Shown here piece after piece: positions 39,400-55,079 of a stretch of DNA of 64,000 nucleotides. The stretch is from an uncultured Acidobacteriota bacterium (GTDB lineage: Bacteria > Acidobacteriota > Thermoanaerobaculia > Multivoradales > UBA5704), in NCBI GenBank assembly GCA_963770895.1, contig CAVYRF010000002.1, positions 4,000,001 to 4,064,000 of the forward strand, written 5' to 3'. The position numbers were made by a program, and so were the translations under genes. Below the pieces are notes generated by a model. That model was not told the DNA's origin, did not search any database, and worked only from the letters and a program-made list of their open reading frames with translations. Positions within the stretch are counted from its first letter, which is position 1. Each line of letters begins with the position of its first letter.

Positions 39400-39837
39400 A
39401 TGGAATCTCGGACGCATTTGGCGATCGATCGCAGGCTTTGCGGCGTGCCTTTGGTGGTGCCGGGGGCGGCGGTGGGGATGGCTTGGGTGGGGCTGACGAC
39501 GGTTGCTGAGATGGCGGCGGATGGGCTTGGGTTGGTGCATGGCGGCTTCGTGTTCGGGCTGGCGGACTATGCGGCGATGCTGGCGGTCAACGATCCGTTG
39601 GTGGTGTTGGGGAGTGCCGAGGTGCGGTTCCTGCGGCCGGTCGTGGTGGGGGAGCGGCTGGTCGCGGAGGCGCGGCGGGAGGGGGAGGCGGGGCGGCGCA
39701 GCAAGGTGGTGGTGGAGGTGCGGCGAGCGCCGGATGATCGCGGCGATCCACGGAGCGCGGACGGGGAGGTGGTGATGCGCGGGGAATTCGTCTGCTTCAC
39801 GCTGGAACGGCACGTGCTGCAGACGGAGCCGGCATGA
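39400..39837 (+). CDS. PaaI-family hotdog thioesterase
   Basis: [22 protein letters not shown]. Confidence 0.85.
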
Positions 39838-41801
39838 ACGGCGGCGAGCAGATCGCCGCGGTGCTGGCGCGGCAGGGCGTGCGTTTCCTGTTCACCCTGT
39901 GCGGCGGGCATATCTCGCCGATCCTGGTGGGGGCCAAGCAGTTGGGGATCCGCGTCGTGGACGTGCGCGACGAGGTGGCGGCGGTGTTCGCGGCGGATGC
40001 GGTGGCGCGCCTGACCGGGGTGCCGGGGGTGGCGGCGGTGACCGCCGGGCCGGGTGTGACCAACACGGTGACGGCGCTCAAGAACGCGCAGATGGCGCAG
40101 TCGCCGGTGGTGCTGCTGGGCGGCGCGGCGGCGACCTTGCTCAAGGGGCGCGGCGCGCTGCAGGACATCGAGCAGATGCCGCTGATCCGGCCGCACGTCA
40201 AGTGGGCGGCGAGCGCCCGCGCGGTGCGCGAGCTGGCGCCGCTGCTCGAAGAGGCGTTCCGCCAGGCGCGCGCCGGGGTGCCGGGGCCGGTGTTCCTGGA
40301 ATGCCCGATCGACCTGTTGTACCCCGAAACGTTGGTGCGGCAGATGTACGGCGCGTCCGCCGGCGACGGTGCCGCGGGCGAGGCAGGCGAAAGTGCGGCC
40401 AAGGACGGCGGCGGCGGACTGGCCGGCTGGGCGCTGCGTTTCTACCTGCGCCGCCACCTGGCGCGGCTGTTCCGGCCGGGGCGGGCGATCGCTGCGGGCG
40501 CCATCGCATCCGGCGCCGTGCCCGGTGCGCGAGCGAGCGCGGGCGATGGCGTCCAGGGCGTCACCGGGCGGGAGCAGGCGCCGTCGCGCGGGCAGGTGCG
40601 GCGGGCGGCGGCTCTCCTGGCGCGGAGCGAGCGGCCGGTGCTGGTGGTGGGGAGCCAGGCGGTGCTGGATACGGCGGCGGTGGGGGAGCTGGCGGCGGCC
40701 ATCGCGGCGATCGGCGTGCCCTGCTACCTGGCGGGTGGCGCGCGCGGGTTGCTGGGCGCCAGCCATCCGTTGCAGCTGCGCCACCGCCGCAAGGAGGCGC
40801 TGCGCCAGGCCGACGTGGTGCTGCTGGCCGGCATCCCCAACGATTTCCGGCTCGACTACGGGCGCCACGTCAACCGGCGGGCCGACCTGGTGATGATCAG
40901 CCGCAAGGCGGACGATCTGAGCCAGAACCGTCGCCCGCGCCTGGCGGTGCACGCCGATCCGGGCCGCTTTCTGCGCGACCTGGCCGCGTACGGCCGGCGC
41001 GCCGGCGGCGGCCCTGCCGGGGAGGGGCTGGCTGCCCTGCCCGGCGTGGCAGCTTCTGCAGTGCCGGCGGCGCCGCTGGCGGAGGGGACCGATACGGCGC
41101 CGACCGGTTCGACCTCGGCAGGGAACCGTGAGGCGGGGCCAGGCAGGTGGGCGTCGTGGCTCGGCGCTCTGCGCGGCCGTGACGACGACCGCGAGCGGGA
41201 GATCGCGGCGCAGGCGGCGGCCGCGGTCAGCGGCGGGCTGGTCAATCCGCTGCACCTTTGCCGCGAGATCGAGTCGCTGCTGGCTCCCGACAGCGTGATC
41301 GTGGCCGACGGCGGGGATTTTGTGGGCACCGCGGCGTACGTGCTGCGGCCGCGGGCGCCGCTGTCGTGGCTGGATCCCGGCGTGTTCGGCACCTTGGGGG
41401 TGGGGGGCGGCTTTGCGCTCGGCGCCAAGCTGTGCCGGCCGGGTGCGGACGTGTGGATCGTCTATGGTGACGGCTCGGCCGCCTACAGCCTGGCGGAGAT
41501 CGACACCATGGCGCGCCACGGCCTGGCGGTGATCGCGGTGGTGGGCAACGACGCGGGATGGGCGCAGATCGCCCGCGAGCAGGTGGAGATGCTGCACGAC
41601 GACGTGGGCACCGTGCTGGCGCGTACCGACTACCATCGGGTGGCCGCCGGGTACGGCGGCATGGGTCTGCGCATCGCCCGCCCCGAAGACGTCCGCCCGG
41701 TCCTGGAAGAAGCGCTGCGGCTGGCCCGCGCCGGCTCGCCGGTCCTGGTCAACGCCCTGATCGGGCGCACCGAGTTCCGCAAGGGCTCGATCTCGATCTG
41801 A
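39834..41801 (+). CDS. ThDP-dependent enzyme, ILVBL / 2-hydroxyacyl-CoA lyase 2-like
   Basis: [41 protein letters not shown]...GND; ATGA-coupled to the thioesterase. Confidence 0.85.
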
Positions 41802-41827
41802 GCCAGCCGGGTGGCGGGCCTGAACCC

Positions 41828-43624
41828 ATGAACGTGGGCGCCCGGCCGCGGGCGGCGCTGCCGGTGGCCGCGATGCTGGCGGCGCTGGCGGCGGTCGCGT
41901 CGGTCGTTGCCGGCGTCGTGCTGCGCCTGTGGGGATTGGCGGATCAGGTCCTGGGCGGCGACGAGCTGCACGCGGTGCGGGTGGCGCTGGCACAGCCGCT
42001 GTCGGCGGTGCTCACGACCTACCAGCTGGCGGACGCGTGCATCCCGCTGACGGCGCTCGATCGCTGGCTGCTTGACCACGGAGTTGCCCTGAGCGAAATG
42101 TGGCTGCGCCTGCCGGTGCTGACGTGCGGCCTGGCGGCGCTGGCGGCCATCCCGGCGCTCGCCCGCCGTTACCTGGAGCCCGCCGCCCGGCCGATCCTGT
42201 GGGCGCTGGTGGCGACGTCGCCGCTGCTCGTCCTGTACAGCCGCATCGCCCGCTCGTACATGCCGGCGACCCTGCTCAGCTTTGCCGCCGTCATGGCGTT
42301 CGGCCGCTGGTGGATGGATGCCGGCGCCAATACCGCAAGTCCCGCCGACGCCGCCAGTGCCGCCAGTGCCGCCGATGCCGCCGCAGCCGGCGCGCGCGGT
42401 AGCCGTGTCGCGCTGGCGTGCTACGCGGCGCTGGGGGCGCTGGCCGTTTGGTTCCACCTGGGGACCGCTCCTATCGTCGCGGCGCCGTTGGTCGTTGCGG
42501 CCAGCCAGATGAGTCTGGCTGCGCTGCGCGGTTGGCGAAGCGAGGGGGGACGTTTGGCGCCGGGGCGCCCTTCCCGATGGCGCGAGTTGGCGGCGGCGGC
42601 CGCGGGTCTGGCGTCGGGTTGGGCTTTGTTTCTGGTGCCGGCGGCCCCATCGCTTGCCCGCCTGGTGGCCGCCAAGAGCCAGGCGCAGCGGATACCGGCC
42701 GCGGTGTGGGGCGACGTGCTGCGGTTGCAGGCGGGATGCGGCGGGCGTTTGCCGGCGGCGCTTTTCTGGCTGAGCGCGGCGGTGGGGGCGGTCACCCTGG
42801 TGCGCCGGTGGCAGCGGTGCGGCATCTACCTGGTGGCGCTGGCGCTCGCCCAGGTGCTGGGCATCCGGGTGTTGTCGCCGCTGGGACTGGCGCGCGCGCA
42901 GGTGCTCGATCGCTACCTGCTGCCGGTGCTGCCGATCGTGCTGGTGTGGGTGGCGACGGGCCTGGCGCGGCCCTGGTGGCCGCGGCAGTCGGCGTTCGGG
43001 CGGCGCGGCCAGCGATGGGCCGCGGCCGGGCTGCTGCTGGTGTGGGTGAGCGCGGGGCCGTTCGGCGACGCCGATTTTCGGAGCAGCTCGTTCATGCACC
43101 ACAACGACATGGTGGCGTTCGCCCTGCCGCGCGCGGTGGCGCCGCCGGGCGCGGTGCCGCGCCCCTACCTGGCCCTGGGGGGGCCGCCGGGCACGGCGGT
43201 GATCGAGCTGCCCTGGCCGCCGGTGTGGGACTTTGGCCGCTCGTTCTACGTCTATCAGGAAGTGCACGGCCTGCGCGTCCTGGTGGCCGCTCCGGGCGGC
43301 GCCCTTCTCGCGGGCCGCCTCCGCTGGCGCAACCAGGTGGAGGCAGCGCCGGCCGCGCTCCTGGGCAGCGGCGCGCGCTATGTCGTGGTGCATCGCCACC
43401 TGGCGGTGGAGGAGAACCGCCTGACCCTGCCGGCGGGGCCGCCGGCGCCGCGCCACATGCCCGCCGCCGCAGCCGCGGCGCTGGCGGCGGCGGGGAATGC
43501 TGCAGACTCGCTCCTCGCTAGCGCCTGGGGGCCGCCAGCCTACGCCGACGCCGACGTCGCCGTGTGGGACCTGGCAAAGTTGCGCCGCGGTGGCGCGGGC
43601 GGCGCGCCGCTCAACGGCCGTTGA
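41828..43624 (+). CDS. Multi-pass membrane protein, putative GT-C (PMT/ArnT-like) glycosyltransferase
   Basis: DE motif after TM1 (GGDELH), YSRIARSY, RYLLP; many TM helices. Confidence 0.6.
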   Translation: MNVGARPRAALPVAAMLAALAAVASVVAGVVLRLWGLADQVLGGDELHAVRVALAQPLSAVLTTYQLADACIPLTALDRWLLDHGVALSEMWLRLPVLTCGLAALAAIPALARRYLEPAARPILWALVATSPLLVLYSRIARSYMPATLLSFAAVMAFGRWWMDAGANTASPADAASAASAADAAAAGARGSRVALACYAALGALAVWFHLGTAPIVAAPLVVAASQMSLAALRGWRSEGGRLAPGRPSRWRELAAAAAGLASGWALFLVPAAPSLARLVAAKSQAQRIPAAVWGDVLRLQAGCGGRLPAALFWLSAAVGAVTLVRRWQRCGIYLVALALAQVLGIRVLSPLGLARAQVLDRYLLPVLPIVLVWVATGLARPWWPRQSAFGRRGQRWAAAGLLLVWVSAGPFGDADFRSSSFMHHNDMVAFALPRAVAPPGAVPRPYLALGGPPGTAVIELPWPPVWDFGRSFYVYQEVHGLRVLVAAPGGALLAGRLRWRNQVEAAPAALLGSGARYVVVHRHLAVEENRLTLPAGPPAPRHMPAAAAAALAAAGNAADSLLASAWGPPAYADADVAVWDLAKLRRGGAGGAPLNGR

Positions 43625-44119
43625 GCGCCACCGCGCTGGCCGCCCGGCGCCGGCGCCGGCCGATCTGCCGGGAAGGCGAGCTGGCCGTCGGTCGCCTTTG
43701 GGCAGCTTGCGGCACCATGAGTACGGCTATTGCGGGATAAAGGGTAACTACCGCCTCTGGCAGCGCCGCGCGCGCCGGCCTGCCGGGAAGACTTGGACCA
43801 GGGGTCGTCCCGGGCGCGGGCGGTTTCCCGGTTCGGGCTGGTGCAGGTGGTCGCAGGTGGTCGTTCGTTTTGGCAACCCTGCCCGACGGGTTCCGCGAAG
43901 CATGGACGGTGGAGTTGGCAAGAGCGGTCGTGGGAAACCAAAAAATGGTTCGGTTCGCCTTGGCCGCCGCCTTTGTGGGCTGGTGGCGGCTTTGGCGCAG
44001 CGCTGGCCGTGCCGGCGATGGCGCGGGCGGCGGCCGGGCTTCTGGTCCCGGTGGTGGCGGGTGCTGGCTCGGGCGGGCTACGGTATGATCGGCGGCCGAA
44101 TACGACAGGAGGATCGGGA

Positions 44120-46336
44120 ATGCACACGCGCACGTCGCCGACGGATGTTGGTCTCAGGAAGAGGCGGCTGGCGCCGCTGGCGTTGCCGGCCTGGCCGGCG
44201 CTGCTGGCTCTGGTGGTCGGCGCTGGCCTGGCGGCTCCGCCTGCGGTCCAGGCGGCTCCGGTTGCGGCGGCGGGTTCGGCTGCAGCCCCGACGGGGGAGG
44301 CCTCGGCCAGCCATCCCTTTGCTGCGATCGACATGCTGTCGATGCTGCGGGTTTCGCAGCCGCAGGCGTCGCCGCGCGGCGATTGGGTGGCGTTCGTGGT
44401 GCAGCGTCCCGATTTTGCCGCCAACAGCAACCATACGGACCTGTGGATCGTGGGCGGCGACGGCAGCGGCGAGCGTGCGCTGACGACGGATGGCGCGGGC
44501 TACGACAATCCGCGCTGGGCGGCCGACGGCAGCGCCTTGTACTTCCTTTCCAGGCGATCGGGGAACAGTCAGATCTGGCGGCTGGCCGCGGCGCAGGCGG
44601 GCCAGGCGGCGCCGCAGTTCGAGCAGGTGACGCGGCTGCCGGTGGAGGTGACCAGCTTCCAGCTGACGCCCGACGCGGCGCACGCGGTGGTGAGCGCCGA
44701 CGTGTTTCCCGACTGCCCGAACCTGGGGTGTACGCACGACCGGCTGGAGACGGTGGCGAAGAGCACGGTCAAGGCGCGGTTCTTCCCCGACGGGACCGGC
44801 TTTGTCCGCCATTGGGACACGTGGGAAGACGGCACCCGCTCGCACCTGTTCGCCGTGGCCCTGGGCGACGGCGGGGCGGCGCCGATCGACCTGATGCATG
44901 GCATGCAGGGTGACGCACCGTCGAAGCCCGAGGGCGGCCCCGAGGAGTACGCGGTGTCTCCCGACGGCCGGACGGTGGTGTTCGCGGTGCGTCTGGCCGG
45001 GCGCGGCGAGCCGTGGTCCACCAACTTCGACCTGTACAGCGTGCCGCTCGACGGTTCGCAGGCGCCGCGCGACCTGACCGCGACCAATCCGGCCTGGGAC
45101 AGCTTCCCGGTGTTCTCGCCGGATGGCAGGACGCTGGCCTATGGGGCGCAGACGCGTCCCGCCGACGAGGCGGACCGCTTTCACCTGGTGCTGCGCGACC
45201 TGGCGAGCGGCCAGGAGCGCAGGATCGCGGAGGAGTGGGACCGGTCGGTCGGGCCGCTGCTGTTCTCGGCCGACGGCCGGACGCTGTTCACCACCACGAG
45301 CGACATGGGGCAGAACCCGGTGTTCGCCATCGACGTGGCGACCGGGCACGTGCGCAAGCTGCCGCTGGCCGGCCACGTCGCCGCGCCGGGGCTGGCCGGC
45401 AGCAACCGCCTGGTGGTGACCATGGACGACCTGCGCCACCCGGCCGAGGTGTACACGCTCGGCACCGACGGGTCGGCGCCGGTGCAGATCACCCACCTCA
45501 ACCGGCAGCGCCTGGCGACGGTGCGGATGGGCGACTTCGAGCAGTTCCACTTTGCCGGCGCCGGCGGCGAGACCGTGTATGGCTGGGTGGTCAAGCCAGC
45601 CGACCTTGCGCCCGGCAAGCGGTATCCGACGGTTTTGATCATCCACGGCGGCCCCGAGTCCGCGATGGACAACCATTTTCACTACCGCTGGAACCCCGAG
45701 GTGTATGCCGGGGCCGGCTACGGCGTGGTGTTCATCGATTTTCACGGCACGCCGGGGTACGGCCAGGCGTTCGTCGACTCGATCGCCCACGATTGGGGCG
45801 GCAAACCGTTCGTCGATCTGCAGCTGGGGCTGGCGGCGGCGGTCGCGCGCTATCCCTGGATGGACGGCGAGCGGGCCTGCGACCTGGGGGCCTCGTTCGG
45901 CGGTTTCATGACCAATTGGATCGAAGGCAACTGGCCCGACCGCTTCCGCTGCGCGGTGACCCACGACGGTGTGTTCGATCAGCGCATGATGTATTACGCG
46001 ACCGAGGAGCTGTGGTTCCCGGAGTATGAAGAGGGCGCGCCGGAGTTTCAGGCGCCCGAGGCCTACGAGAAGTGGAACCCGGTGCGTTTTGTCGACCGCT
46101 GGAAGACGCCGATGCTGGTCGTCCACAGCGACCTGGACTTCCGCATCCCGCTCAGCCAGGGCCTGGGCGCCTATACCGCGCTGCGGCGGCGCGGCGTGCC
46201 CAGCGAGTTCCTGGAGTTTCCCAACGAGAACCACTGGGTGCTGAAGCCGGCCGACAGCTTGCTGTGGCACCAGACCGTGCTGTCGTGGCTGGCGCGGTGG
46301 CTCAACCCGCCGACCGGCACGCCCGTCGCGCAGTGA
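44120..46336 (+). CDS. Secreted S9 peptidase (DPP5/acylaminoacyl peptidase-like)
   Basis: beta-propeller repeats FSPDG; IHGGPE, GASFGG, DFRI, ENHWV; AGGAGG RBS. Confidence 0.92.
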   Translation: MHTRTSPTDVGLRKRRLAPLALPAWPALLALVVGAGLAAPPAVQAAPVAAAGSAAAPTGEASASHPFAAIDMLSMLRVSQPQASPRGDWVAFVVQRPDFAANSNHTDLWIVGGDGSGERALTTDGAGYDNPRWAADGSALYFLSRRSGNSQIWRLAAAQAGQAAPQFEQVTRLPVEVTSFQLTPDAAHAVVSADVFPDCPNLGCTHDRLETVAKSTVKARFFPDGTGFVRHWDTWEDGTRSHLFAVALGDGGAAPIDLMHGMQGDAPSKPEGGPEEYAVSPDGRTVVFAVRLAGRGEPWSTNFDLYSVPLDGSQAPRDLTATNPAWDSFPVFSPDGRTLAYGAQTRPADEADRFHLVLRDLASGQERRIAEEWDRSVGPLLFSADGRTLFTTTSDMGQNPVFAIDVATGHVRKLPLAGHVAAPGLAGSNRLVVTMDDLRHPAEVYTLGTDGSAPVQITHLNRQRLATVRMGDFEQFHFAGAGGETVYGWVVKPADLAPGKRYPTVLIIHGGPESAMDNHFHYRWNPEVYAGAGYGVVFIDFHGTPGYGQAFVDSIAHDWGGKPFVDLQLGLAAAVARYPWMDGERACDLGASFGGFMTNWIEGNWPDRFRCAVTHDGVFDQRMMYYATEELWFPEYEEGAPEFQAPEAYEKWNPVRFVDRWKTPMLVVHSDLDFRIPLSQGLGAYTALRRRGVPSEFLEFPNENHWVLKPADSLLWHQTVLSWLARWLNPPTGTPVAQ

Positions 46337-46398
46337 TTGCCGTCGTGCACTCGTAGACCTTGAAGGTGCGCGGTCGCGGCGTCCTGGGGGCGTCGGGG

Positions 46399-46610
46399 CC
46401 GCGCACCTGACCTCCCCGCTGCACACGCCGCGCACCTGGCCTCCCTGGTGCACACCTGGCCTCCTGCGCCGCATACCTGGCCTCCCTGCCGCAGCCCTGG
46501 CCTCGCTGCCGCAGTCCTGGCCTCGCTGCCGCGCATCTGGCCTCGCTGCCGCGGCCCTGCGCCTCGCTGCCGCGCATCTGGCCTCCCTGCCGCGCATCTG
46601 GCCTCCCCTG
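46399..46610. repeat. 20-bp tandem minisatellite, about 10 degenerate copies
   Basis: Units such as CCGCAGTCCTGGCCTCGCTG, CCGCGCATCTGGCCTCGCTG and CCGCGCATCTGGCCTCCCTG head to tail. Confidence 0.85.
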
Positions 46611-46863
46611 CGCCTCCCTCGCCGCCTCTCTCGCTGCCTCCCTGCCGGCGCTGTTTGCCCCTGCTTTGGCCTTCGCTGAGGCCGGCGATCCCTTGTCGTG
46701 GTTGGGGTTGCGATTTCTTGATGGTCTTTGTCTTCAAAACCCGCCCTGCGGCAACTCTTCTTGTATAGGTGCCCCCAATAGGATGACGGGCCATCAAGGC
46801 ATCGCTATACGGGCATTAGAGCGATCAATCGGCAAGGACGGCACAGCAAGGAGAACTCGCTTT

Positions 46864-48930
46864 ATGGTTCCATTCCCCATCTCAATGCCCGGCGCTCTTC
46901 GGCTTCGCAGTGTGCAGCCTCTGATCGATTGGGACGGCTCCTGCAGCCTGGTGTACGACGTAGAGCGGGCGGCGGTGTTCGAGGTGCCGGCCGAGCTGCA
47001 GCTGCACATCGCGCCGGCGCTGGAAACGGGCGACCTGGACGAAGACCTGCTGGGATGGTTGGCCGGCGAAGATCTGCTGACCGCCGAAGGTTGGGGGGAC
47101 TGGAGCGTCTGGAGCGGCGCGGGCGCGGCGGGAGCCGATTGCGACTTCGGCGCGACGGGCGCCGCCGGTGGATTTGGCGTCTATCGTGGCGCGCACGACG
47201 ACGACGGACCGGCCGGGCGCACCGACTCGGCGGCCGGCCTGGTGGCGTTTCCGGGGATCGCGTGGCAGGCGGCCCTGCCGGTGGAAGGCGCCTTCGCCGG
47301 CGCGGGGCACCTTGGGGACGAGGCCCACGGCTGGATCAGCCAGGCCGGCGAGGGCGCCGCGCTCGACGCCCTGGAGACGCTCTTCAAACGCGCGCTGGGG
47401 GCGTCGCGCCTCAAGCTGCACTTCGATTGGGCGGGGACCGTGCCGGCCGGCGGCCTGCTCGACAAGATCGTGAGCGAGGCACGCCGCCGGGCGGTGGTGT
47501 CGCGCCAGGAGATCACTTTCGAAATCGCCGTCGACCCGGGCCAGGTCAGTGCCCAGGTTGCCCGCCGTCTGGCCGATCTGCCGGTGCACGTGCGCCTGCG
47601 GTGTGGGGAGTGCGATTCGGCCGCGCTCGCCGGCACGCCCAACGAAAACCGGCCTTGGCTGCTCGCCGAGCCGGCGGTGCAGCTGCTGCTGGAGGCGCAC
47701 GCGCAGGGGCCGCTCGCTCCCATGGCTCCGATGGCTCCGATGGCTCCGATGGCTCCAATGGCTCCCCTTGGCACCATGTCGCGGCTCGCGGCGCGGCCCG
47801 CCGAGCCGGCGCCGCTGACCGTGCAGTGCGTCCTGCACGGTGCGGCGCGGTTGATCGAGCTGTGGCGCTGGGCCAAGGGCCTGGGCCTGAGCAGCCTGGA
47901 CGTGATCCGCCTCGACGATTCGGATGCCGTCGGCTCCGGTGCCGGCGCTGGCGCCGGCATCGCCGCCACGGCCTCGGCGCCCGCGCAGGCCACGCACGCC
48001 GCGCCCGCCCCAGTCACCGCGGGCTCGCTCGTCGGCGGCGGCAGGGCAGAGTGCGCGGGCGCGGGCGCAGCGATGGCCGCGTTGCCGGTTGCGCCGGCCT
48101 CGTTCGTGGAGGCGCCAGGCGCGGGACTGCAAGGCAGCGGGGCCGGGCATCCGGTGGCGCCGGCGTCGCTGCCGCCGGCGGGCCTGGGCAGCGAGCTGTC
48201 CGAGCTGGCGGAGCTGACCTCGCGGCTGGCCTCGCGTGCCCGTGACTCGCGCCTGTACTGTCAGGACCTGGAAGCGATCTACGAAGAGACCTGCAACGAG
48301 CTGGTGGCGGGCCGCCTGCCGATCGACTTCCAGCCGCTCACCCGCATCGTTCGCCGCCTGATGCGCGGCGAGCTGCCGCGGCCGCTGGCCGGCGGCGCGG
48401 ACGACGGCGAAGCCTCGCCGGGGCTGGCCATGCGCTTTGGCGGCATCGAAACCCTGGATCCGCGCCAGCTGCCCGAGCTATGGTGGCTGCGCCTGGGCGA
48501 CCTGACGCAAGCCAACGTCGCCACCGTCGCGGGGGGAGCGCGCCTTGCGGACCTTGCAGGCGGTGCAAACGGTGATGGCGGCGCCGGCGCCCGCGCGGCG
48601 GCGGAAGCGAGCGAGCCGGAATCGGCAGTCCCCTGTGTCAGCTGCTGGGCGCGCCAGGTCTGCAACCACAGCGTCTATGTCGCTTCGCCGCTCGGCAGCG
48701 AAGACCCGCGCTCGCCGTCGCGCGAGCACTGCGACATCTGGTGCGCCGAAGTCGAAGCTGCGCTGCGCCTGTTCCATCGGCTCACCCAGATCGATCAGAC
48801 CACCCAGCTGCTGCAGTTCATCGAAGGCGACGGCGGCGGCGCGCACTCCTTCCACCCGCTGCACTCGCAGCAATCGACCATGCCCCAGCCCTTCAGCTAC
48901 ATGGATCTGCGCAGCATGAAGCCCTCGTAG
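46864..48930 (+). CDS. Degenerate radical SAM/SPASM-like protein (RRE-like N-terminus, no CxxxCxxC)
   Basis: AAGGAG RBS; barrel strand/helix pattern of SPASM maturases; C-terminal CVSCWARQVC...HCDIW. Confidence 0.65.
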   Translation: MVPFPISMPGALRLRSVQPLIDWDGSCSLVYDVERAAVFEVPAELQLHIAPALETGDLDEDLLGWLAGEDLLTAEGWGDWSVWSGAGAAGADCDFGATGAAGGFGVYRGAHDDDGPAGRTDSAAGLVAFPGIAWQAALPVEGAFAGAGHLGDEAHGWISQAGEGAALDALETLFKRALGASRLKLHFDWAGTVPAGGLLDKIVSEARRRAVVSRQEITFEIAVDPGQVSAQVARRLADLPVHVRLRCGECDSAALAGTPNENRPWLLAEPAVQLLLEAHAQGPLAPMAPMAPMAPMAPMAPLGTMSRLAARPAEPAPLTVQCVLHGAARLIELWRWAKGLGLSSLDVIRLDDSDAVGSGAGAGAGIAATASAPAQATHAAPAPVTAGSLVGGGRAECAGAGAAMAALPVAPASFVEAPGAGLQGSGAGHPVAPASLPPAGLGSELSELAELTSRLASRARDSRLYCQDLEAIYEETCNELVAGRLPIDFQPLTRIVRRLMRGELPRPLAGGADDGEASPGLAMRFGGIETLDPRQLPELWWLRLGDLTQANVATVAGGARLADLAGGANGDGGAGARAAAEASEPESAVPCVSCWARQVCNHSVYVASPLGSEDPRSPSREHCDIWCAEVEAALRLFHRLTQIDQTTQLLQFIEGDGGGAHSFHPLHSQQSTMPQPFSYMDLRSMKPS

Positions 48931-49229: not shown

Positions 49230-50114
49230 TCAATCCTTGCCGACGAAGACGCGCTGCATGTTCAGGTAGAGGCCGCTGGTCGGCAGCGTGCCGCTGATGG
49301 AGGCGCTGGCGGGCTCGATGTTGGCGGATACGTAGCCGGTCGCGGAGGCGATGCCGGTGCAGAAGCTGGGGTCGGCGGTGAGGATGTTGGTGGCGCCGTA
49401 GGCGGTGATGGGCGGGGCTGCCGCGAAGACCGGCTGGGTGGTGTTGCTGGCGGTGTACACCGCGATTTCGAACGAGCAGCTGCCATAGGCGCCCAGAACG
49501 GGATACATCTCGAAGTAATACTCGGTGTTGGGTTGGATGGTGACGCCGTTGCCCAGCACGTTGTTGGCGGCGTTCAGCTGCAGTTGCCCCTGCACCACCG
49601 AGGAGAGGTTTTCGTTGGTCCCCCAGTACGCCCAGACCGAGCTGTCGTAAGTGGCCAGGAAAAAGCCATATTCCCGGCCTCCGTTGTAGCACTGGTTGGT
49701 GTTGAAAAAGACCGACTGGAACAGGTTGCCGGTCAGGTTGTTCAACGGGTAGGGCGTGTTGAACGTTCCCAGGAATCCCACGCCGGTGACCCCGGTGCCC
49801 TGATTGCTTTCGATGAACGCCACCGGGAAGTTGGTGGTGTTGCCGCAGTTGACCGCGCCGCCAGTGCCGGGCAGCTGGGTCTGGGGCATGGACAGGGTGT
49901 TGGCGGTCGGCAGGATCCCGGCCAGGTCGGTGTTGAGGATGGGCGACTGGCTGCTGCCGGCATCGTAGTAGTTGCCGCTGGCCATGTTCGATTCGTTGGT
50001 CAGGTTCAGGATGTCGGTCCAGACCGGCGGATATTGCTGAGCGTTGGCAAGGTTTGCCGCCGCCAGCAACGCCAGCGCCACGGTCGAAAAAGCGATCGTT
50101 CGAGTCCGTTTCAT
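49230..50114 (-). CDS. Secreted hypothetical protein, Asn/Thr/Gly-rich and probably beta-rich
   Basis: Signal peptide MKRTR...ANA-Q; GAGG RBS; strong GC3 codon bias; 4 Cys. Confidence 0.78.
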   Translation of the reverse strand: MKRTRTIAFSTVALALLAAANLANAQQYPPVWTDILNLTNESNMASGNYYDAGSSQSPILNTDLAGILPTANTLSMPQTQLPGTGGAVNCGNTTNFPVAFIESNQGTGVTGVGFLGTFNTPYPLNNLTGNLFQSVFFNTNQCYNGGREYGFFLATYDSSVWAYWGTNENLSSVVQGQLQLNAANNVLGNGVTIQPNTEYYFEMYPVLGAYGSCSFEIAVYTASNTTQPVFAAAPPITAYGATNILTADPSFCTGIASATGYVSANIEPASASISGTLPTSGLYLNMQRVFVGKD

Positions 50115-50152
50115 GATGTCTTTCCTCAGCGTTTGTTGCATGGGCCTTCTGC

Positions 50153-50223
50153 GATAGCATTCCATATTTTGAATACTATCTATTGCGAAATTGCATTATG
50201 TGGCATGACCGAATCTATGTCAA
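50153..50223 (-). promoter_or_regulatory. sigma70 promoter plus palindromic operator
   Basis: Minus strand TTGACA(50223-50218)-N17-CATAAT(50200-50195); inverted repeat GATAGCATTC-N8-GAATACTATC at 50153-50180. Confidence 0.7.
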
Positions 50224-50417: not shown

Positions 50418-52250
50418 GTGCTGCTCGAAATCCACGTGCGCAATCTGGCGGTGTTGGCCGAGGCGTCGGTGACGTTCGGTCCGGGGTTCAACGTGCTTTC
50501 GGGGGAGACGGGGGCGGGCAAGTCGATCGTGGTGGATTCGCTGTTCCTGCTGGCGGGGGCGCGGGCCAGCGGCGATCTGATCCGGGCGGGGGCGGAGGCG
50601 CTGACGGTGTCGGGGGTGTTCCGGCCGGGGGGGGCGGGGTGGCGGCGGGTGCTGGACGCGGCGGCGATCGAGATCGAAGGGGACGAAGTGCTGGTGCGGC
50701 GGGAGATCGGGCGCAACGGCCGCAACCGGGTGTTCGTCAACGATCAGCCGACGACGCTGCGGCTGCTGGCGGACCTGGCGCCGCACCTGCTGCGCATTCA
50801 TGGACAGCGCGACGAGCTTGACCTGCTGGCGGCGGAGCAGCAGCGGGAGTGGCTGGACGCGGGGGGTGGGGCGGAGGGGGACGGGCTGCTGGCGCGGGTG
50901 GGCGAAGCGTTCGCGCGCCACGCCCGGCTGGTGGAGCGCATCGAGCGCCTGAGCGGCGACGAGCGGCTGCGGCGGGAGCGGATCGAGCTGCTGCGGTTTC
51001 AGGCCGGCGAGATCGATGAAGCCAAGGGGCGGGCGGGCGAAGACGACGAGCTGCGGCAGGAGCGCGAAGTGCTGCGGCATGCCGAGGCGATCGCCGCGGC
51101 CGTGGGCGGCGCGCAGGCGCTGCTGTCCGAAGAGGAGGGCGCGGCGGTGGAGCGGGTGGCGCGCGCGCATTCGCTGCTGGCCGGGGTGGCGTCGTGGGAG
51201 CCGCAGGCGGCGGCCTGGGCTGCCGAAGTGGAGGAGGTCCGCATCCGCCTGGCGGAGGTGGCGACCGGCCTGGCGCGGCGCCTGGACGGGTTGGAGGCGG
51301 ACCCGGTGCGGCTGGATGCGGTGGAGGCGCGGCTGGCCCTGCTCGAAAGGCTGTGTCGCCGGCACGGCGGCGACCTGGCGCAGGTGCTGGCGCGGCGGGC
51401 TGAGATGGAGATCGAGCTGGCGGAGCTGGAGGGCGATGCCGACAACCTCGAGCAGCTGGCTGGCGAGGCGGCGGCGGCGCTCGCGGACTATCGCCAGGCG
51501 GCCCTGGCGCTGTCGGCGGCGCGGCAGGGGTGGGGCCAGGCGCTGGCGGGCCGCATCGAAGAGGAGCTGCAGGACCTGGCGCTGGGCCGGGCGCGGCTGG
51601 CGGTGCGCCTGGACCGGCGGCGCCGGGCCGAAAGCGAGCTGGTGCTGGACGGCGAGCCGGTCGACTACGGCCCGCATGGCATCGACCAGGTGACCTTCCT
51701 GTTCGCTCCCAATCCCGGCGAGGAGCCGCGTGCGCTGGCGCGCATCGCCTCGGGGGGAGAGCTGTCGCGGCTGCACCTGGCTCTGCAGCTGGCCGCCGGC
51801 GCCGGCCCGCGGCGGGCGGCGGGGGACTTGGGGGCGACCGTCCAGGAGCGGGAGGACGTGGCGCCGACCTTGGTGTTCGACGAGGTGGACAGCGGCATCG
51901 GCGGCGCCGAGGCGGCGGCGCTGGGGCGCAAGCTGCAACGGCTGGCCGCGGCCCGGCAGATCCTGGCCGTGACCCACCTGCCGCAGGTGGCGAGCCGCGC
52001 GGACCTCCATTTTCGCGTGCGCAAGACGGTGGCGGAGGGGCGGACCAACGTGCTGGTGGACCCGCTGGGCGGGCCGCGGCGGGTCGAAGAGGTGGCGCGC
52101 ATGCTGGGCGGGGAGTCGCTGACGCCGCTGTCGCTGTCGCACGCCGAAGAGCTGATCGCGGCGGCGGCCCGCGGCGCCGCCCAGCCGCCGGACCAGCCGC
52201 CGGCGCGGGCTGCCAGGCCGGCGGGCGGTCGGCGTCCGGCGGCGCCATGA
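50418..52250 (+). CDS. recN: DNA repair protein RecN
   Basis: GETGAGKS, ASGGELSR, FDEVDSG, VTHLPQVA. Confidence 0.95.
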   Translation: MLLEIHVRNLAVLAEASVTFGPGFNVLSGETGAGKSIVVDSLFLLAGARASGDLIRAGAEALTVSGVFRPGGAGWRRVLDAAAIEIEGDEVLVRREIGRNGRNRVFVNDQPTTLRLLADLAPHLLRIHGQRDELDLLAAEQQREWLDAGGGAEGDGLLARVGEAFARHARLVERIERLSGDERLRRERIELLRFQAGEIDEAKGRAGEDDELRQEREVLRHAEAIAAAVGGAQALLSEEEGAAVERVARAHSLLAGVASWEPQAAAWAAEVEEVRIRLAEVATGLARRLDGLEADPVRLDAVEARLALLERLCRRHGGDLAQVLARRAEMEIELAELEGDADNLEQLAGEAAAALADYRQAALALSAARQGWGQALAGRIEEELQDLALGRARLAVRLDRRRRAESELVLDGEPVDYGPHGIDQVTFLFAPNPGEEPRALARIASGGELSRLHLALQLAAGAGPRRAAGDLGATVQEREDVAPTLVFDEVDSGIGGAEAAALGRKLQRLAAARQILAVTHLPQVASRADLHFRVRKTVAEGRTNVLVDPLGGPRRVEEVARMLGGESLTPLSLSHAEELIAAAARGAAQPPDQPPARAARPAGGRRPAAP

Positions 52251-52287: not shown

Positions 52288-52995
52288 GTGACGCCTGCGG
52301 CGGGGGCGGTCTGGCGCTGGCAGTTCGGCTCGCCGGTCGGGCCGCTCGCGGCGCTGCTGGCGGCGGGCGGGGTGGTGGCGATCCCCACGGAATCCAGCTA
52401 CGGATTGGCGGCGGTTCCTACCAGCGCGGCCGGCGTCGAGGCGATCTACCGGGTGAAGGGGCGCGAGCGCGGCAAGGCGCTGCCGGTGGTCGTGGCGGGG
52501 CTGGCGCAGCTGGCTGGCTTGGGGATCGCGCCCGACCTGCCTATACTCATGCGCCTGTCGGCGTTCTGGCCCGGCCCGCTCACGGTGGTGGTGCCGCTGG
52601 CCGCCGGCAGCGGTGCGGCCGCGCCTCCGGCGGCGGCCGGCGGCACCAGCCTGGCGGTCCGTATCCCCGGTCATGCACGGCTGCTGGAGCTGCTGGAGCA
52701 GCTGGGGCACGGGCTTACCGCGACCAGCGCCAACCGCAGCGGTGGCGAGCCGATTCTGGACCCGGGCGAGGTGGCGGCGCTGCTGGGCGCGTCGCTGGGA
52801 GCAGCGGCGGCCGCGGGGGCTGGGACGGCAGGCGCGGCGGTGGTGGACGGCGGCATTCTGGCCGGCGGGCCGCCCTCGACGATGGTGGTCGCGGTGGCGG
52901 CGCCGGATGCGCCGGACGGCTGGGGCGTCAAGGTGCTGCGCGCCGGCAGTGTTCCGGTCGAGCGGTTGCGCGAGCAGGTGCGCGTACTCGCGTAA
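52288..52995 (+). CDS. tsaC: L-threonylcarbamoyladenylate synthase (YrdC/Sua5)
   Basis: PTESSYGL, KGR...K.L, WPGPLT, TSANRSG. Confidence 0.88.
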   Translation: MTPAAGAVWRWQFGSPVGPLAALLAAGGVVAIPTESSYGLAAVPTSAAGVEAIYRVKGRERGKALPVVVAGLAQLAGLGIAPDLPILMRLSAFWPGPLTVVVPLAAGSGAAAPPAAAGGTSLAVRIPGHARLLELLEQLGHGLTATSANRSGGEPILDPGEVAALLGASLGAAAAAGAGTAGAAVVDGGILAGGPPSTMVVAVAAPDAPDGWGVKVLRAGSVPVERLREQVRVLA

Positions 52996-53027: not shown

Positions 53028-55079
53028 GTGGTGACAGATATGCGGCACGGAACACAGACCCAAGGCACCCGCCGAAGCTCCCCGCTCTCCCCCTTGCTGG
53101 CGCTCACCGCGCTGCTGCCGCTGCTGGCGGTCCTGGGCCTGGCGCCGCGGCCGGCGCGCGCCGCCGACGCCGCCAGCGCCTCCAGGACACTGCCGACGAT
53201 CGATATCGACGAGGTGAAAGTGGGCCAGCGCGGCTACGGCCTGTCGGTGTTTTCCGGCGGCGAGCCGCAGCGCTTCGAAGTCGAAGTGATCGGCGTGATG
53301 CGCAACACCAGCCCGGACATGAGCTACATCCTGGCGCGGCTGTCGGGGCGCGGCCTGGAGTCGAGCGGGGTGGCGGCGGGCATGAGCGGCAGCCCGGTGT
53401 TCCTCGACGGGCGCCTGGCCGGCGCGGTGGCGTTCGGCTGGCCTTTTTCGAAAGAGGCGATGTGCGGCGTGACGCCGATCGCGGTGATGCGCCGCCTGAC
53501 GACGCTGGGGTCGCCGGTGCCGACGTCGGCGCCGCCGCCGGTGCCGCTGGCCGACCTGCTGGCCGGCCGCGTGCCCGCCGACCTGCTGGCCCGCCAGATG
53601 GCGCGCCTGCACCTCAGCCAGGGCGGCCTCCCCGAGGGAGCGCTGTCGGGGGTCGAATGGTCGAGCGTCGGGTTCGGCGAGCAGTCGCGCGCCCTTTTGG
53701 GGCAGGCGCTGGGGCGCGTCGCGTCGGCGGGCAGCCTGGGCGCGGCGCCGCTGGGAGCCGCGCCGCCGGCGGCGCGGCCCGAGCTGGTTCCCGGCAGCGC
53801 GGTGGCGGCGGTGCTGGTGGACGGCGACCTGCAGCTGGCCGCGGTCGGCACCGTGACCGATCACCTGGGCGACCGCATCCTCGCCTTCGGCCACGCCTTC
53901 CTGGGCTTCGGCGCGATCCGCGTGCCGATGGCGACGGCGGACGTGATCACCGTGCTGTCCAGCCAGTACAGCTCGTTCAAGATCGCCAACCTGGGCGCCA
54001 CCGTGGGCGCCTTCGAGCAGGACCGTCAGGCTGGCATCGAAGGGCGGCTGGGGGCGCAGGCGACGATGGTGCCGCTGTCGCTGCGCATCGGCGGCGCGCT
54101 GGCCAAGGCCGCCGGCGGCTCGTCCCCGGCTGCCGACGCCGCGTCCTCGGCTGCCGGCGCCGCGCCGGCGCGCCTGTTCCACGTGCGCATCGCCGACGTG
54201 CCCGAGCTGCTGCCGCTGCTCAGCGGCAGCACCCTGGCCGCCGGCCTGGAATCGGCCAGCTTTTCGAGCGGCCCCCAGGACCTGGACCTGACGGCCCGCT
54301 TCCGCATGGCCGGGCACGAAGACCTGGTGGTGCGGCAGAGCTTCGACGGCGAGGGCGCCACCAGCTCGATGGCCAGCTACCTGGTGGCGGTGGCGTCCTA
54401 TCTGGAGCAGAACCCGCTCGAGCAGGTGCACATCCAGGACGTCGACGTCAACATCGAGCAGACGCCGCGCCAGCAGACCGCGACCGTCACCGCCGCCTAT
54501 GCCGACCGCGCCATCGTGCACCCCGGCGATCGCCTGGGCATCCACGTCGAGCTGCAGGCGTACCGCGGCCAGCGCTCCCGCCATTCGTTCGAGCTGCAGC
54601 TGCCGCGCGACCTGCCGCTGGGCCGCTATTCGATGCTGGTCGGCGACGGCCCCAGCGCCGATGCCGCGCGCCTCACCCTGGCGCCGGTCGATCCGGGCAC
54701 CTTCGCCCAGGCCATGGCCCTGCTGCGCTCGCTCCATTCGCGCCGCGACCTTGCCCTGATCGGCTTTTACAGCGGCGCGGGGGTGGCGGTGGCGGGCGAG
54801 GTGCTGCCCATGCTCCCCGGCTCGCTGCGCTCGCTGTGGGCCGCCTCGGCGGCGCCCGGCGCGGCGCCGCTGCACGTCGCCATCGCCCAGGAGCGGCACG
54901 AGACCCTGGAGGTGCCGATCGAAGGCCTGGTGCGGATCGACGTCGACGTGCGGCGGCGCGACGCTCCGCCGGCAGCCGGCGGCGCCGAGCACCAGGGCGC
55001 CGGCGAAGGCGAAGGCGAATCTTCCGTCCAGCTTTACGATTCCGCGATGCCTGCGTCGGGCAGCGAGGGGGTGCAATGA
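53028..55079 (+). CDS. SpoIVB-like S55 peptidase domain protein, secreted
   Basis: Signal peptide; GMSGSPV; GTVT...AFGH. Confidence 0.82.
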   Translation: MVTDMRHGTQTQGTRRSSPLSPLLALTALLPLLAVLGLAPRPARAADAASASRTLPTIDIDEVKVGQRGYGLSVFSGGEPQRFEVEVIGVMRNTSPDMSYILARLSGRGLESSGVAAGMSGSPVFLDGRLAGAVAFGWPFSKEAMCGVTPIAVMRRLTTLGSPVPTSAPPPVPLADLLAGRVPADLLARQMARLHLSQGGLPEGALSGVEWSSVGFGEQSRALLGQALGRVASAGSLGAAPLGAAPPAARPELVPGSAVAAVLVDGDLQLAAVGTVTDHLGDRILAFGHAFLGFGAIRVPMATADVITVLSSQYSSFKIANLGATVGAFEQDRQAGIEGRLGAQATMVPLSLRIGGALAKAAGGSSPAADAASSAAGAAPARLFHVRIADVPELLPLLSGSTLAAGLESASFSSGPQDLDLTARFRMAGHEDLVVRQSFDGEGATSSMASYLVAVASYLEQNPLEQVHIQDVDVNIEQTPRQQTATVTAAYADRAIVHPGDRLGIHVELQAYRGQRSRHSFELQLPRDLPLGRYSMLVGDGPSADAARLTLAPVDPGTFAQAMALLRSLHSRRDLALIGFYSGAGVAVAGEVLPMLPGSLRSLWAASAAPGAAPLHVAIAQERHETLEVPIEGLVRIDVDVRRRDAPPAAGGAEHQGAGEGEGESSVQLYDSAMPASGSEGVQ

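Follow-up and report, generated by a model that had tools for sequence, protein, structure and literature searches.

A pseudo-radical SAM/SPASM protein with an RRE-like domain as a conserved core gene in a family of Thermoanaerobaculia

Radical S-adenosylmethionine (SAM)/SPASM maturases have been intensively mined as markers of peptide natural products. Among them, CteB (PDB 5wgg), PapB, QhpD and the nif11-peptide maturase combine three parts in one chain, a recognition element (RRE) for peptides that are made by the ribosome and modified after translation (RiPPs), a radical SAM (rSAM) barrel and a SPASM domain. Discrete RREs such as PqqD and TbiB1 are also known, and lasso B1 proteins work with a B2 leader peptidase. 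In the SPASM enzymes anSMEcpe and PqqE, the auxiliary cluster II (AuxII) relays electrons to and from the auxiliary cluster I (AuxI) and the SAM cluster, according to the account in PMC5715301, where the AuxII ligands of anSMEcpe are C317, C320, C326 and C348, the AuxI ligands are C255, C261, C276 and C330, and AuxII is the cluster nearest to the protein surface. The notion of a pseudo-rSAM protein is already known from rSAM relatives named as pseudo-enzymes, such as TIGR04150 (pseudo_rSAM_GG) and TIGR04347 (pseudo_SAM_Halo), and from the pseudo rSAMs of Bacteroidales RiPP clusters (IPR026418), for which PMC10352776 states that no function has been assigned. The present work deals with a gene of 688 codons in a 64,000-nt stretch of DNA, called the window (positions 4,000,001 to 4,064,000 of contig CAVYRF010000002.1, assembly GCA_963770895.1), from an uncultured Acidobacteriota bacterium of the class Thermoanaerobaculia. 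Its protein is an rSAM/SPASM derivative which cannot, as judged from its sequence, bind the SAM cluster, and its gene is a near-universal core gene of its bacterial family.

The gene's family has the same three-part architecture as the CteB group and is homologous to it through intact intermediates. The fold aligns with CteB from the RRE-like domain to the end of the SPASM region, and the CX2CX5C motif and a distal cysteine stand at the same alignment positions. Unlike the CteB group, the family has no CX3CX2C, no GGE or TNG motif and no AuxI ligands, and the window gene has no precursor peptide or partner enzyme nearby and is a core gene, not part of an accessory RiPP cluster. Likewise, the Bacteroidales pseudo rSAMs sit with an rSAM enzyme and a precursor in the description cited above, whereas the window gene has neither nearby, and neither TIGR04150 nor TIGR04347 matches it at E <= 0.01. 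The family differs from the known pseudo-rSAMs in being an orphan, a core gene and linked to a gene for an S9 peptidase. Literature searches for pseudo-rSAM/SPASM proteins and Thermoanaerobaculia radical SAM proteins found nothing on the family within a coverage that lacks most subscription journals.

The descent of the protein is established on two independent grounds, profiles and structure. At E <= 1e-3, the homolog search gave 133 proteins; the 120 best of them were studied, and their alignment with the window protein is the basis of all counts out of 121 given below. These homologs are 'hypothetical proteins' of 437-586 aa with no precomputed Pfam domains, and the named ones come from metagenome-assembled genomes labelled Thermoanaerobaculia. 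Pfam has no family for the window protein, none of 25 family members matches any Pfam model even at E <= 1, and the gathering score of PF04055 is reached neither by the window protein nor by the family members. In NCBIfam, residues ~583-645 match the models of QhpD and the nif11-peptide maturase over their final 60 positions (E 1e-3 and 7e-3), and the SPASM remnant also matches CteB weakly; none of the CteB, PapB, QhpD and nif11 maturase models is above its cut-off, with E values of 1e-3 to 0.2 over the last ~50-60 positions only. An exhaustive search with the family profile returned 234 proteins at E <= 1e-3, and the full-length matches beyond the family carry Pfam Radical_SAM with or without SPASM, namely P0161 (E 1.2e-65), P0176, P0193, P0194, P0210 and P0213. 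All six have both CX3CX2C and CX2CX5CX3C, while P0203 has CX3CX2C only. In NCBIfam, these intact relatives come closest to the models of the nif11-peptide maturase, QhpD, PapB and the SCIFF maturase but reach none of the cut-offs, and they are an unnamed subfamily of the thioether-forming clade. When the family was compared with seven intact relatives by hhalign, the probability was 100 and the E value 3.8e-54 over 437 columns at 26% identity.

The structural evidence comes from an AlphaFold2 model with a predicted local distance difference test (pLDDT) score of 66.5 overall and above 85 in the core blocks. The model consists of an N-terminal three-stranded domain, six strand-helix units and a C-terminal helical region. 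The strands of the barrel lie at residues 153-158, 182-187, 216-223, 241-247, 318-324 and 344-350 with helices between them, and the bridging region that follows has helices at 441-481 and 490-500. Its best structural match is CteB (5wgg_A; Z 17.0, rmsd 5.3 over 342 residues, model residues 14-641 against chain residues 1-450), followed by anSMEcpe (4k36; Z 15.1), TigE (Z 14.2) and ChlB (Z 13.9), after which the next match has a Z of 9.7 and many other rSAM enzymes follow. By its six units and these alignments, the model has the partial (beta/alpha)6 TIM barrel of the radical SAM superfamily. The fold was recovered by an exhaustive VIA-align search only, as Foldseek found nothing in the PDB for the whole model at E <= 1e-3, and phmmer found nothing for the single protein among PDB sequences. 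In a protein-atlas search, the compact member P0122 adjoins an unnamed 88-member Acidobacteriota cluster and then radical SAM clusters.

CX3CX2C is found neither in the window protein nor in any of the 120 homologs, and the loop after strand 1 is only four residues long in the model. In the alignment and in hhalign, the CNxxCxYCFE of the intact enzymes is replaced by ...DDExHxRI..., HFGSGEPL by LHLDWxGxFP (the Glu is lost; G191 is kept in 119/121 and P194 in 121/121) and LTTNGTL by FELxLDA, so that TTNG becomes L-x-L-D. Similarly, the AuxI cysteines of YCGAGG and YPC in the intact sisters are replaced by other residues. CX2CX5C is present in all 120 homologs, and C591, C594, C600 and C623 are cysteines in 121/121. 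Position 604, which would be the fourth Cys of CX2CX5CX3C, has no Cys in any member (A in 55, S in 35, T in 20, V in 6, and others) and is V604 in the window protein. The seven-cysteine, two-cluster SPASM pattern (PF13186/TIGR04085) is thus incomplete, with CX2CX5C and the distal Cys remaining. These four positions are taken to be the AuxII set because they correspond to C317, C320, C326 and C348 of anSMEcpe in the ligand assignment given in PMC5715301. Unlike in PqqE and anSMEcpe, the putative AuxII would be the sole cluster, since AuxI and the SAM cluster cannot exist in the window protein. Other conserved cysteines are C27 (121/121), C247 (120/121) and C322 (114/121).

The initial annotation of the gene, made from the letters of the sequence, had anticipated much of this. 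It had described an intact open reading frame (ORF) of about 690 aa with a ribosome-binding site, and the frame has 688 aa with AAGGAGA 9 nt before the ATG. The strings it quoted are all present, namely LVYDVERAAVFEV (residues 29-41), ALETLF, LKLHFDWAGTVP, LLDKIVSEAR, ITFEIAVDP and VHVRL, and the hhalign E value and the Z against CteB show that the RRE-rSAM-SPASM layout it saw is not a chance resemblance. It was also correct on the loss of CxxxCxxC, GGEP and the AuxI motifs, on the coordinates of the retained Cx2Cx5C and distal Cys with Val at the x3 position, and on AuxII ligation by these four positions in anSME-type SPASM domains, which agrees with the passage of PMC5715301 on anSMEcpe. It had named three outcomes that would speak against it, and the reverse was found in each case: the barrel is in the model, the homologs of the family lack CxxxCxxC, and the four cysteines are conserved.

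The loss is old. In a maximum-likelihood tree of 53 proteins, a single branch (support 100/100) divides the 31 cluster-less rows from the 22 intact ones, and the same split is found in 100% of 200 bootstrap trees. With the root among the distant intact enzymes, this single cluster-less clade implies one old loss. The cluster-less side, which spans proteins down to ~26% identity, comprises the clade of the window's family and a second, more divergent clade, with which three loci of a second GTDB family (f10) group. In the window's GTDB family, the gene is present in 89/92 genomes, 55/56 high-quality genomes and 11/11 genera and is mostly single-copy; in the window's own genome it occurs once, and a close intact sister is absent. 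Among 200 other genomes of the class, sampled from 20 families, it was found only in the window's family (4/4) and in f10 (1/1). When 13 close pairs that do not overlap are pooled, the ratio of nonsynonymous to synonymous substitution rates (dN/dS) of the whole gene comes to 0.275. By region, it is lowest in the N-domain (0.097), followed by the SPASM remnant (0.18), the bridging helices (0.28), the barrel (0.29) and the linkers (0.40). The median over all 1431 pairs, 0.51, was set aside because synonymous sites are near saturation in most pairs of this gene, which is rich in G+C at third codon positions (GC3). Hence, the gene is a near-universal single-copy core gene of its family under purifying selection with no recent decay, and the check proposed in the initial annotation, conserved cysteines and a dN/dS below 1, gave the expected result.

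The most constrained part of the protein is the N-domain, in which on average 0.82 of the sequences share the commonest residue and R13, R15, C27, D32, R35, W65 and T73 are found in 121/121. Its model has strands at 17-21, 27-32 and 37-40 and helices at 49-55 and 60-68. When the domain is modelled alone (pLDDT 72), the structures closest to it are those of TbiB1 (Z 5.1 over 61 residues), another lasso B1 protein (Z 4.5) and the PbtF RRE (Z 3.8), all three of which were solved with bound leader peptides. McbB and, lower down, the N-terminal domains of CteB and TigE and PqqD also appear, within a Z range of 5.1-3.1. Such low values are expected because the domain has only 60 residues.

The C-terminal tail is likewise conserved. 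The penultimate Pro is present in 104/121 members against a Pro background of 6.9%, and in 100/121 a K/R at -3 or -4 is present as well. RMPF and SKPS are the most frequent endings, and the window protein ends in MKPS. A different motif, comparably placed and with K/R at -3, closes seven proteins of the divergent clade (P0138, P0146, P0149, P0150, P0153, P0154 and P0163), which end in ...E-[LW]-[KR]-T-C-COOH or D-L-K-V-C, and two intact sisters end in K-H-C-G and K-N-C-I.

The weight of these two ends is best seen in natural deletions. In five genomes of the family, the match is limited to residues 1 to ~85. For example, genomes G270 and G263 have a complete stand-alone gene of 101 aa between the S9 gene and a methyltransferase gene. 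The stand-alone frames were located in loci L069 (9917-10222, +), L070 (9882-10187, -) and L050 (3254-3613, +, a 119-aa frame). In L069 and L070 they are flanked by the S9 peptidase gene and a class I methyltransferase gene, and in L070 the two frames, as listed, overlap by 44 nt. In a large protein collection, the stand-alone form of 99-106 aa falls into 11 separate clusters at the 90% identity level, with 72-93% identity to the protein of G263. In these proteins, the N-domain is joined by a short linker to a tail ending in ...K-A-P-C, ...L-P-S or similar, and full-length relatives with the same ending are known (...AKAPC in L019 and L021). Because the N-domain and tail are kept without barrel or SPASM region, an internal deletion has left both ends, and the deletion series points to the N-domain and tail as the parts that matter. 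Longer fused forms were not found, which is weak evidence. The stand-alone form is predicted to have the RRE-type strand-strand-strand-helix fold of the discrete RREs and, like lasso B1, adjoins a peptidase gene. Unlike discrete RREs, the N-domain gives no match to Pfam PqqD (PF05402) and only the low Z values given above; unlike in the lasso B1/B2 pair, the place of the B2 cysteine protease next door is taken by a secreted serine peptidase of family S9, and there are no precursor or cyclase genes.

The neighbourhood was compared in 62 genome loci with flanks up to 10 kb. Directly upstream, and on the same strand, the gene for the S9 peptidase was found in 59/62 loci by tblastn, 59 by ORF clustering and 60 by either. 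The two exceptions are L054 and L046, in the latter of which the gene is cut off by the contig end. In the window, this neighbour matches Pfam Peptidase_S9 (4.4e-55) and PD40, and NCBIfam Dpp5 (6.6e-136, below cut-off). The same gene order is found in the three f10 loci, where the protein is ~26-33% identical to the compact member P0122. Four loci from families f2, f3 and f7 have the S9 ortholog without a pseudo-rSAM neighbour, which implies that the peptidase does not need the pseudo-rSAM protein.

The reading we favour, with moderate confidence, is that the protein is a non-catalytic recognition or adaptor protein, a dead descendant of the thioether-forming RRE-rSAM-SPASM maturases of the CteB/PapB/QhpD/nif11 group, which presumably no longer cleaves SAM or modifies a peptide. 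In the manner of RREs, the acidic RRE-like N-domain would bind a short peptide stretch of a partner as an extra beta-strand, and the C-terminus, conserved as [KR]-x-P-[FSC], would be a second contact or a recognition element. The RRE-like N-domain and the C-terminal tail would be the indispensable parts, and the half-barrel and SPASM remnant an accessory scaffold, probably with one surface-near [4Fe-4S] cluster, which may tie the stability or activity of the protein to Fe-S or redox status. The suggestion of the initial annotation that the protein was repurposed is retained in its first form, the peptide-binding scaffold, which fits the N-domain dN/dS best, and not in that of a partner of a maturase, as another maturase is found in 0/62 loci. 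Its emphasis on the selective retention of AuxII as the key is weakened, as some members of the sister clade have lost the motif and the ~101-aa form has neither barrel nor SPASM region. A more specific version is unlikely, in which the RiPP-derived RRE and tail now form a core protein that has given up natural-product synthesis and would guide, hold or regulate a different protein. The most plausible target would be the Dpp5-like S9 peptidase, and the [4Fe-4S] cluster would be an iron or redox switch in most lineages. The linkage to the S9 gene would in that version predate the split of two bacterial families, and the two proteins would be an RRE-guided peptidase system, loosely comparable with the lasso B1/B2 pair. 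The export signal of the S9 peptidase argues against a simple cytoplasmic complex of the two proteins.

Several points weigh against the adaptor reading. The RRE assignment of the isolated N-domain model has a low Z (<= 5.1), and Foldseek found nothing for this model in the PDB at E <= 1e-3. Cluster binding at the four cysteines is deduced from their position only. The barrel is under purifying selection too (dN/dS 0.29), and family-specific polar residues at its strand ends are conserved (E153 105/121, H155 117, W189 112, C247 120, C322 114), as might be expected of a new active site as well. A Sec-type signal peptide is present in the S9 peptidase, and no export signal is visible in the gene's own protein, as read from its sequence; the S9 ortholog is moreover present in 53/61 genomes of the order, most of which are without the gene, and in 12/12 families sampled. 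Hence, the adjacency may not mean physical cooperation. The S9 peptidase is the sole candidate partner that the genome offers.

The conserved barrel is what a neofunctionalised enzyme would call for, in which a new non-radical site lies in the half-barrel, the RRE delivers a peptide substrate and the AuxII cluster is structural. Candidate site residues stand at the strand ends (E153, H155, W189, E216/E220, R244, C247, C322 and D346), and they are found in 105-121/121 members or rank as (nearly) invariant; the constraint on the barrel and the retained RRE agree with such a function as well. What makes it rather unlikely is that the ~101-aa forms dispense with the barrel, stay conserved and keep their genomic place, and that no precursor-like gene is conserved nearby, the conserved upstream stretch being non-coding.

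It is considered improbable that the protein acts in trans as the pseudo-subunit of an active rSAM maturase whose gene lies elsewhere, a role proposed for the pseudo-rSAMs of the Bacteroidales clusters. Such a role recalls the intact sisters, which stand second in a tandem pair of rSAM genes following an ORF of 97 aa (L082 1128-4352; similar in L084 and L085). The first gene of the pair is PapB-like, and the ORF, a putative NHLP-like precursor, has weak NHLP-clan and Frankia-peptide matches; the window's genome also has 31 Radical_SAM and 5 SPASM matches. However, none of these matches is inside the window, and eleven intact rSAM/SPASM queries match nothing but the gene itself in the 62 loci. 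The window's genome lacks a close intact sister, and NHLP-type precursor models found nothing there, a weak negative because the controls of the two models matched 0 genomes and 1 genome, respectively. The single-copy core status of the gene is also unlike that of accessory RiPP clusters. As a separate observation, the tandem pair of the sisters, seen in metagenome contigs, looks like an undescribed tandem-maturase type of RiPP cluster.

It is decidedly unlikely that the protein is chiefly an Fe-S protein, in which the AuxII [4Fe-4S] cluster is the functional centre, sensing redox state, oxygen or iron or serving as a small electron carrier, and everything else is scaffold. The invariance of the four cysteines in the family, the rank of the SPASM remnant as the second most constrained region (0.18) and the near-surface place of AuxII in the structure described in PMC5715301 would suit it. 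The relatives speak against it: within the divergent cluster-less sister clade, on at least three separate branches, the AuxII motif is wholly absent in P0154, P0165 and P0181, partial in P0153 and lost by pattern in P0149, and the N-domain is conserved in all of them, as it is in the stand-alone forms, which lack the whole SPASM region. Radical chemistry through a non-canonical cluster of C27, C247 and C322, as in Dph2-type enzymes, is highly improbable; the three cysteines are nearly invariant, but C27 and the C247 position are already found in the intact sisters P0161 and P0193, so they were not gained together with the loss, and the SAM-binding motifs are gone. A functionless relic in slow decay, which the lack of a Pfam family and the large low-complexity inserts of the window's copy might suggest, is scarcely credible and already contradicted by the conservation data, that is, the intact gene in 89/92 genomes, its dN/dS of 0.275, the invariant motifs and a clade reaching down to ~26% identity.

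The annotated parts of the gene and its surroundings are collected in Table 1.

Table 1. Positions of the gene, its annotated parts and adjoining features in the window
Feature	Position	Strand	Remark
Whole gene: degenerate RRE - rSAM barrel - SPASM protein	46864..48930	+	open frame, 688 aa + stop
Ribosome-binding site AAGGAGA	46848-46854	+	read from the sequence; 9 nt 5' of ATG
N-terminal RRE-like domain, residues 9-78	46888..47097	+	three strands, then helices
Linker insert 1, residues 79-150, low-complexity, predicted disordered	47098..47313	+	pLDDT < 50; mostly gaps in homologs
Degenerate radical SAM (beta/alpha)6 half-barrel, residues 151-350	47314..47913	+	no cluster loop or SAM motifs
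Insert 2, residues 351-440, low-complexity, window-specific expansion	47914..48183	+	absent from 24 other aligned homologs (columns 412-500)
Bridging helices, residues 441-505 (RxDL..I.EE....L..G..P..FQPLTRIVRRL)	48184..48378	+	aligned to the same block of intact relatives
Insert 3, residues 506-587, pLDDT < 50	48379..48624	+	N-terminal AuxI cysteines of intact relatives lie here (YCGAGG ... YPC)
SPASM remnant with four AuxII-position cysteines, residues 588-655	48625..48828	+	alignment
C-x2-C-x5-C (C591, C594, C600)	48634..48663	+	read from the translation
Distal Cys C623	48730..48732	+	read from the translation
C-terminal tail M-K-P-S-COOH	48916..48927	+	family consensus [KR]-x-P-[FSC]
Conserved DNA motif TTTGTC-N15-GCGGNAAC-N9-12-TAKAGG	46727..46769	+	40/43 upstream regions
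Upstream neighbour: Dpp5-like S9 serine peptidase with PD40 propeller	43793..46336	+	frame as listed; true start probably further downstream

The G+C content around the gene is ~74%, and the codon-position G+C marks the frame as coding (GC3 0.83). A GGAGG-type block stands at the matching place in 30 aligned orthologous upstream regions, and homologs begin at the same Met, so that a longer TTG-started frame from 46666 is not needed. The window protein is ~200 residues longer than most homologs and has three low-complexity Ala/Gly/Pro-rich inserts (79-150, 351-440 and 506-587), which fall on gaps of the other homologs and are predicted to be disordered; the second has pLDDT below 50 over residues 361-430. 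A 9-nt coding repeat, GCTCCGATG, in 5.6 copies at 47716-47765 encodes (APM)5 in a loop of the degenerate barrel; it belongs to a set of low-complexity expansions, all in frame, that only the copy in this genome has.

Between the S9 and pseudo-rSAM genes, the spacer is conserved around the DNA motif of Table 1, ~95-110 nt before the start codon. The similarity is found in all frames and on both strands, which indicates conservation at the DNA level and not of a coding sequence. The reading of this conserved stretch as a precursor-peptide gene, sought among small ORFs of the spacer, was thereby rejected, in agreement with the initial annotation, which had seen no adjacent precursor. An RNA element was rejected too, as RNAalifold gave 0 pairs and no relevant Rfam match was found. 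The core pattern TTGTC-N15-GCGGNAAC has 3 sites in the genome (its own and two identical copies elsewhere) vs 1 control match, and no regulon is evident in the genome from these numbers. The spacing of the motif does not fit a standard sigma-70 promoter. The motif is probably the gene's own promoter or operator, and it may be an alternative-sigma promoter or operator. The window spacer is 527 nt long vs ~200-300 nt in most other loci, and contains a tandem array of a 20-nt unit, GCCGCACACCTGGCCTCCCT (8.9 copies, 82% matches, 46398-46647, with overlapping 29-, 41- and 61-nt periods), followed by a 12-nt repeat.

Further genes of the neighbourhood vary among the loci. A 200-aa class I methyltransferase encoded downstream was rejected as an obligate partner, since its gene is adjacent in 31 of the 52 loci whose downstream sequence is long enough, and a clear ortholog is missing from the window's genome (at best 42% identity, over part of the protein). 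A gene for a spore-photoproduct-lyase-like rSAM protein (CIYDCRYC) lies 1.5-6 kb downstream on the same strand in 16/62 loci (e.g. L008 14619-15659); it is the only frequent neighbour with CX3CX2C and is not in the window. RecN is found downstream in 6 loci, which make up the window's clade. The downstream block of recN (50418-52250), a Sua5/YciO/YrdC-family gene (52288-52995) and a gene for a 683-aa protein with a SpoIVB (S55) peptidase region (53028-55079) is syntenic in the window's sub-clade. In the window only, a gene for a 311-aa secreted Asn/Thr/Gly-rich protein with a signal peptide (49230-50165, -) is inserted before recN, which sister loci have within ~150 nt; its G+C is below that of the surroundings, and it has no Pfam, NCBIfam or PADLOC match. 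PADLOC defence models gave no match. Upstream of the S9 gene, the frame at 41558-43624 (+) encodes a polytopic membrane protein with a weak Agl23/PMT_2 glycosyltransferase-type match, and since it overlaps the end of a gene for a thiamine pyrophosphate (TPP) enzyme (39834-41801), its true start is probably near 41831.

The conserved S9 neighbour, the conserved C-terminal tail, the loss of AuxII in relatives and the ~101-aa form go beyond what the initial annotation had noted. The family shows that a maturase-type protein can lose all radical chemistry and persist for long as a core gene. Its members make up a natural deletion series, from the intact enzyme to forms without the SAM cluster and AuxI, and from these to forms that have lost AuxII as well in some lineages and to RRE and tail only in others. 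For annotation, it follows that the family should not be counted among RiPP maturases. If a partner is found, the family would provide one of the few examples of an RRE with a role other than in RiPP biosynthesis, and a simple system for an isolated AuxII-type cluster.

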